Shown: positions 59,390 to 59,578 of the stretch, one piece after another
Layout: the number at the start of each line of letters is the position of its first letter
Position numbering within the stretch: the first letter of the stretch is position 1
Assembly (NCBI RefSeq): GCF_003334255.1
Contig: NZ_QOWU01000030.1
Source: Escherichia coli
GTDB lineage: Bacteria; Pseudomonadota; Gammaproteobacteria; Enterobacterales; Enterobacteriaceae
Direction: 5' to 3' (one strand)
Length of the DNA: 59,578 nucleotides
Position numbers and translations under genes: made by a program
Notes under the pieces: generated by a model
Database searches by the model: none
Seen by the model: the letters and a program-made list of their open reading frames with translations, nothing else
What the model was told of the DNA's origin: nothing

Positions 59390-59578
59390 ATATTGGGCCC
59401 GGGCGGTACAGACGGTTTACGCGGTCGCCTGCGGCAACGGCTTTCCAGGTGACAGTAGCACGGAGCTTTACCCCCGGAGAACGCCGGCAAGCCCCATAAC
59501 TGCCATGAGACGTGCCACAGTGCATCTGGCCACTCTGATTCCTTCCCGTAACAACTGACGCCAGACTTTACGCACACC
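59390..59578 (-). mobile_element. IS3-family transposase fragment (orfB region), truncated and running off the window
   Basis: Minus-strand translation [36 protein letters not shown], typical of the IS3-family OrfB N-terminal region; in-frame stop and loss of homology near 59390. Confidence 0.45.

Follow-up and report, generated by a model that had tools for sequence, protein, structure and literature searches.

The window, a stretch of 59,578 nucleotides from Escherichia coli, follows the chromosome from cmtA through speC to yqgA and then reaches a tRNA-Phe gene (pheV, 35787-35862). From 35863 on, the sequence belongs to an integrated conjugative element, for which pheV is the integration site. 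The element carries a tyrosine recombinase, IncI-like type IVB pilus (pil) genes, a pilV shufflon, an rci-like integrase, traE, and traF. The tyrosine recombinase, a 331-aa ORF at 36062-37057, matches an annotated gene in STEC2018-553.

Integration at a tRNA gene next to a tyrosine recombinase is characteristic of PAPI-1/SPI-7-type elements. The wider gene content (pheV, recombinase, pil, pilV, rci-like integrase, and traE/traF) resembles that of PAPI-1/SPI-7/ICEclc-type ICEs with an IncI-like type IVB pilus and a shufflon. Relatives of this element go on with the TIGR03745-03759 ICE genes; of the element, the window covers no more than the first 23.7 kb. In a complete relative, the TIGR0375x transfer set and TraD lie 30-60 kb beyond the insertion sequence (IS) scar that is the subject of this study; in the source strain, that part of the element may be rearranged. 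The scar itself is no more than a mark in the cargo, with traF on one side and a type III restriction-modification (R-M) module on the other.

Cargo between traF and the gene next to the scar (57338-57719 and 57854-58340) is a junk-yard of remnants. One is the 3' end of a sigA-type autotransporter gene (91% identical), of which SCU-106 has an intact copy; another is a frameshifted higB/higA toxin-antitoxin pair, which identical relatives list as pseudogenes. Downstream of pilV, at 51499-52824, two segments of the shufflon have the opposite orientation to those of STEC2018-553, resulting in a 429-aa PilV variant, of which we found an exact match in only six contigs on record.

The core-genome part of the window is 98.7-99.5% identical to STEC2018-553, compared with 99.97% for the last 6.8 kb of the element (10911-19487 vs 19486-51512). 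This contrast indicates the same conjugative element in different chromosomal backgrounds and fits recent horizontal spread. An IS621 insertion present in STEC2018-553 is missing from the window.

A decayed relic of an IS629/IS1203-group element

BLAST of a full 1310-bp IS629/IS1203-type copy gave a single significant match in the whole window, at 59408-59578 on the minus strand, corresponding to IS nt 576-747 (92.4% identity, E = 1e-67). The first-pass annotation, which had read the window edge as a truncated IS3-family transposase, was correct in this respect, and homology of the orfAB transposase assigns the fragment to the IS629/IS1203 group of that family, whose isoforms include IS3411. 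Alignment with plasmid sequences places its start at 59411, and the internal orfB fragment thus spans 59411-59578 on the minus strand (IS nt 744-576 of 1310). The span given earlier reached the window edge, as we also find, but began slightly early at 59390; the boundary lies at 59410/59411, and positions 59390-59410 are the last bases of the relaxase gene nikB.

The fragment covers only about 13% of the element. It corresponds to approximately residues 66-121 of OrfB, in the HTH_21 region, and stops about 10 residues short of the first catalytic Asp. The minus strand from 59578 to 59468 translates to a 36-residue peptide that is the same as the IS629 OrfB sequence. These first 36 codons match the NCBIfam model NF033516, 'IS3 family transposase' (profile positions 151-183 of 369, E = 8e-6); the score of 25 bits falls below the cut-off of 160 because just 36 codons are in frame. 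The orfB frame is broken on the minus strand by indels at 59469-59475, where one G has been gained and 2 nt have been lost (net -1); according to alignments and the ORF list, they create a stop at 59468-59470. A protein look-up with the edge ORF (59468-59578) returned no record.

A full copy of the element in a related assembly (L002, 1438-2747) is 1310 bp long and is bounded by TGAACCGCCCCGG inverted repeats, which are 41-nt imperfect IRs. The search for inverted repeats proposed earlier gave none: BLAST of the whole IS detected no such terminus in the window, and the corresponding loci of L001 and L003 likewise lack them. With both IS ends lost from the relatives and the distal side of the window copy beyond 59578, flanking target-site duplications of 3-4 bp were set aside as a criterion. 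The DDE (rve) catalytic core is also absent, since the IS homology stops at nt 744, short of the 'LWVADFT' region with the first Asp, and the frame is broken. Neither orfA nor the -1 frameshift signal (ALIL pseudoknot) is present in the fragment, since IS nt 576 lies downstream of the pseudoknot annotated in full copies; both could be located past 59578. An Rfam scan of the window identified a tRNA and naRNA4 only, and no frameshift pseudoknot. The naRNA4 hit, a REP-derived nucleoid-associated RNA, is in the core chromosome (23885-23955, minus strand; 60.9 bits against a gathering threshold of 59.5). The fragment thus fails as an IS in every functional respect (ends, catalytic core, and orfA). 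It is a relic without function, left by an insertion sequence of the IS629/IS1203 group (IS3 family), and the match is real, far beyond chance.

The two parts of the fragment differ in their divergence. The left part (59411-59501, minus strand) carries old substitutions that are common to all relatives of the conjugative element and is about 88% identical to any IS629/IS1203 copy. A distant BLAST search of 72,556 plasmids yielded no closer copy than about 88% for this part and no better-matching named IS, and the copies in E. coli genomes are no closer. IS629 sub-types diverge by 4-5% from each other (PMC3271280), and IS629 isoforms and partial IS629 deletions have been documented (PMC3271280; PMC9330008). 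At about 12%, the divergence of the left 90 nt exceeds that between sub-types. The scar is an old, decayed piece of a pseudogene.

The same IS family is present in approximately 5,500 E. coli records; among 5,426 complete E. coli genomes, about 3,500 carry it. Remnants of the IS629 type are commonplace in E. coli islands, and the fragment is an already known, ordinary kind of object. The scar in itself matters little.

The displaced gene next to the scar

The IS fragment lies 55 bp upstream of an orphan gene of 337 aa (58342-59355, minus strand; two predicted C-terminal helices) and shares its orientation, in agreement with the earlier description of a fragment abutting this gene's upstream region. 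The 55 bp in between (59356-59410, minus strand) are derived from an IncI-like plasmid and comprise the last 29 bp of nikB and a 26-bp spacer with a ribosome-binding site. On IncI-like plasmids, homologues of the 337-aa gene (91% and 82% identical) are located 26 bp downstream of nikA-nikB, in the same orientation. In the alignment with these homologues, plasmid homology extends from the gene to 59410, and IS homology takes over at 59411.

As nikA-nikB lie upstream of the gene in the plasmids and just 29 bp of nikB are left here, the IS scar has replaced the native upstream operon. The joint is the end point of a deletion running from within the IS to within nikB, rather than an IS terminus, and the comparison shows the 337-aa gene to be a displaced plasmid gene whose usual partner is the relaxase operon.

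Searches of NCBIfam, PADLOC, and Pfam gave no match for the 337-aa protein. Its family is small and uncharacterised and occurs on conjugative plasmids of Enterobacter, Serratia, Aeromonas, Pseudomonas, and Burkholderia, with an invariant E-G-x-N-R motif at residues 139-143. Foldseek weakly matched a part of about 90 residues of the AlphaFold model (pLDDT 80.5) to ParB/sulfiredoxin-fold domains (E = 0.03-0.3, TM about 0.17 on query length). We treat this predicted likeness as a weak lead, not as a result.

The scar in related elements and at the contig end

We read the corresponding locus in 13 related assemblies (L001, L003-L008, L010, L011, L013, L015, L020, and L021). In all 13, the scar is 158 bp long and ends at the equivalent of 59568, where CAGACTT is followed by ATTCAGAAAATC. 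Beyond it, all 13 have an (ACGCA)n tract and then an intact type III methyltransferase (mod) and endonuclease (res), DUF1281, and ArdC. Farther downstream, the TIGR0375x transfer genes, together with traD, topoisomerase III, and genes for replication, take up more than 40 kb.

The first-pass annotation had placed the fragment at the end of an island. This does not hold, as the element continues for more than 60 kb past the scar in complete relatives, through type III R-M, ArdC, TraD, and the TIGR0375x genes. The scar lies in the interior of a pheV conjugative element of more than 80 kb, between the 337-aa orphan gene and the type III R-M module. What looks like the island's right-hand limit is where the contig breaks, not a biological boundary, so island limits drawn from the window would be wrong. 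An IS-linked rearrangement had also been proposed. At the joint this stands, given the replacement of nikA-nikB, the different scar pieces kept by relatives, and an end that looks recombinant; as an event at the island's end it does not. As for an unrelated intact gene beyond the edge, raised earlier as the alternative to an IS, the type III methyltransferase is such a gene in all 13 relatives, but it is not in the window, where the last 10 bases are still IS.

More distant elements retain less of the scar. SCU-106 has only the equivalent of 59427-59502, directly after the intact sigA autotransporter, and in SCU-171 just 59500-59568 is left, joined to R-M DNA at the same point. Because these two keep different pieces, the scar must be old, ancestral to the element family, and independently eroded. 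The distal junction, CAGACTT joined to ATTCAG, is common to diverged element lineages, including SCU-171 (about 90% identical overall).

The right end of the window departs from this pattern. Over 19,008 bp (40561-59568), only two positions set the window apart from its sister elements in L020 and L021: the window reads T instead of A at 59540 and C instead of T at 59561. Both differences fall within the last 39 bases, which by our own arithmetic has a chance of about 4e-6 under random placement. Positions 59569-59578 read TACGCACACC, the continuation of the IS in register, at a point where all relatives switch to the DNA upstream of type III R-M. The last part (59540-59578, minus strand) thus follows a rare, live IS629 variant of the 14EC047 type, with T59540, C59561, and then 10 extra IS nucleotides. 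The window end joins the scar-specific C59492 and T59501 to T59540...TACGCACACCGTATACC, where the standard scar instead has A59540, T59561, and ATTCAG. Between the two lies a stretch of 38 nt (59502-59539) in which the scar and IS629 copies are identical. The last 64 nt are matched exactly in only 8 of 5,476 IS-bearing records. Exact identity to the 14EC047-type variant covers 59502-59578, or 77 nt; it starts at 59502 because that variant has C at 59501, where the window has T.

The left end of the window is likewise an IS sequence. Positions 1-77 are an IS1 terminus of exactly 77 nt on the minus strand, with its inverted repeat at 61-77, and unique DNA next to cmtA begins at 78. Exact 77-nt repeat ends are the mark of a de Bruijn assembler at k = 77. 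With such repeats at both ends, the window is probably an entire k = 77 draft contig, which on the right broke off inside a multi-copy IS. In another assembly, this region is represented by a sister contig of 59,554 bp; its scar is the standard one, and the contig ends at the pentanucleotide tract.

These boundaries bear on whether the hybrid end is an assembly artefact. The source strain would then have the 158-bp scar and type III R-M, and the last 39 bases would have been wrongly drawn from IS629 reads, through a low-k chimeric path or an end 'correction'. The anomaly does lie exactly at the contig end, 77-nt repeat ends are typical of de Bruijn assemblies, and the sister assembly, identical over 19 kb, has the standard scar. 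Moreover, the hybrid rests on one contig end and was found in no complete E. coli genome of the collection. However, no more than 38-47 identical bases are common to the standard scar and IS629, which would therefore be unconnected at k = 77. The contig also runs unbranched through 59540, which would imply reads that link C59492 and T59501 to T59540. Given the lack of a shared k-mer at k = 77 and the unbranched contig, we rate an artefact below a genuine recombinant and consider it unlikely.

Alternatively, the lineage of the window could have kept a longer or complete original IS, and the 158-bp form of its relatives could be a later deletion. The 10 further bases of IS in register would fit this, as would C59561, which is also present in the more distant SCU-171 element. 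Yet the short-form junction occurs in diverged lineages, and the window element is identical over 19 kb to elements with the short form, which implies that the junction predates the window's lineage. In addition, identity to a modern IS629 variant is exact over the last 77 nt but only about 88% in the rest of the scar. We regard retention of the ancestral state as extremely improbable.

Exact-pattern scans of a species-representative genome collection with the junction 38-mer and a scar-specific 36-mer gave no match, and the parent IS of the scar type was not found. The predicted hybrid OrfB' protein (102 aa) matched a 610-bp contig. We discarded this match, as the contig is an ordinary collapsed IS629 contig with non-hybrid bases and the agreement is a coincidence at the protein level.

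A likely exchange with IS629 and its consequences

Taken together, these comparisons make it likely that the scar is inert and that, in the source strain, it has crossed over with a live IS629 copy within 59502-59539. We propose that a PAPI-1/SPI-7-type conjugative element integrated at pheV once carried, in its cargo region, an IS629/IS1203-group IS adjoining a captured piece of IncI-like plasmid (the 3' end of nikB and the 337-aa gene). Subsequent deletions would have removed both IS ends and left about 158 bp of orfB (IS nt 586-744), which became frameshifted and mutated. The end points lie inside the IS on both sides, pointing to at least two deletion events. The remnant would then have been fixed in the element lineage as a passive scar that does not transpose, encodes nothing useful, and has no known IS3-family promoter elements. 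The order of the deletion events, like the reality of the hybrid, is inferred.

In the source genome, the scar may have acted as a short homology patch for a crossover with a multi-copy IS629 variant in the 59502-59539 interval. Such a crossover would explain why the IS runs past the old scar end and why short-read assembly (k = 77) went no further. We rejected a fresh transposition of IS629 into the scar, because the IS sequence continues in register with it; this fits homologous exchange and not a new insertion. As the homology is one-sided, a reciprocal exchange or break-induced event is favoured over patch conversion, and this would entail a deletion or inversion with an unseen partner. 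Past 59578, the sequence probably continues with the 575-nt orfA/IRL side of IS629 and then with DNA from another locus. Two considerations temper this proposal. Homologous recombination has only a short substrate in 38 bp. STEC2018-553, a close relative, has no IS629 copy besides the scar (one place in the record); as close relatives lack a further copy, the source strain must have acquired one.

As an internal piece of an IS629-type element that has lost both ends, the scar resembles IS remnants left by partial IS629 deletion ('type c', promoted by IEE) and by illegitimate recombination; such deletions are described for lineages of Shiga-toxin-producing E. coli (PMC9330008), in which the scar also occurs. 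It differs from them in that nothing at the scar points to IEE, and the deletion mechanism proposed here is inferred.

The earlier suggestion that the fragment supplies an outward promoter was not borne out. The fragment, or the left end of IS629 if the hybrid is real, could in principle drive a gene that has lost its nikA-nikB operon promoter: it lies 55 bp upstream in the same orientation, the native operon is gone, and in a real hybrid the gene would lie in the reading direction of orfA and the IS629 IRL promoter. However, the -35/-10 hexamers of IS3-family outward and junction promoters sit in IRR and IRL (PMC9330008), and the fragment is internal to orfB and has neither. No sigma-70 consensus site was predicted in 58200-59578 on either strand. 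Furthermore, the scar of the relatives has no IS promoter at all, yet their 337-aa gene is intact and identical. We therefore consider a role of the IS as promoter donor very unlikely. Only with a real hybrid might the weak IS629 IRL promoter act through orfA and the broken orfB on the 337-aa gene, and we give this a low probability.

A larger role for the scar, as a live recombination substrate, can also be envisaged. Exchange with IS629 would then re-wire the element and re-activate the plasmid-derived 337-aa membrane protein gene through the IS629 left-end promoter and orfA. We find this quite unlikely. A real hybrid would nevertheless represent a strain-specific rearrangement of an element with a possibly phase-variable type III R-M system and virulence-linked cargo, and it could affect mobility. 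Recombination at the scar could, for example, split the pilus/integrase half of the element from type III R-M and the transfer genes.

The (ACGCA)n tract of the relatives lies outside the window, between the scar and the start of the type III methyltransferase gene (L001, 6289-6395; L003, 5001-5045; L015, 15119-15310; and equivalents). In the loci of near-identical relatives, it has 5, 7, 15, 19, 22, 25, 32, 35, 37, 38, or 41 copies, and an ATG immediately precedes it. By its sequence, the tract looks like a phase-variable type III R-M switch on the conjugative element.
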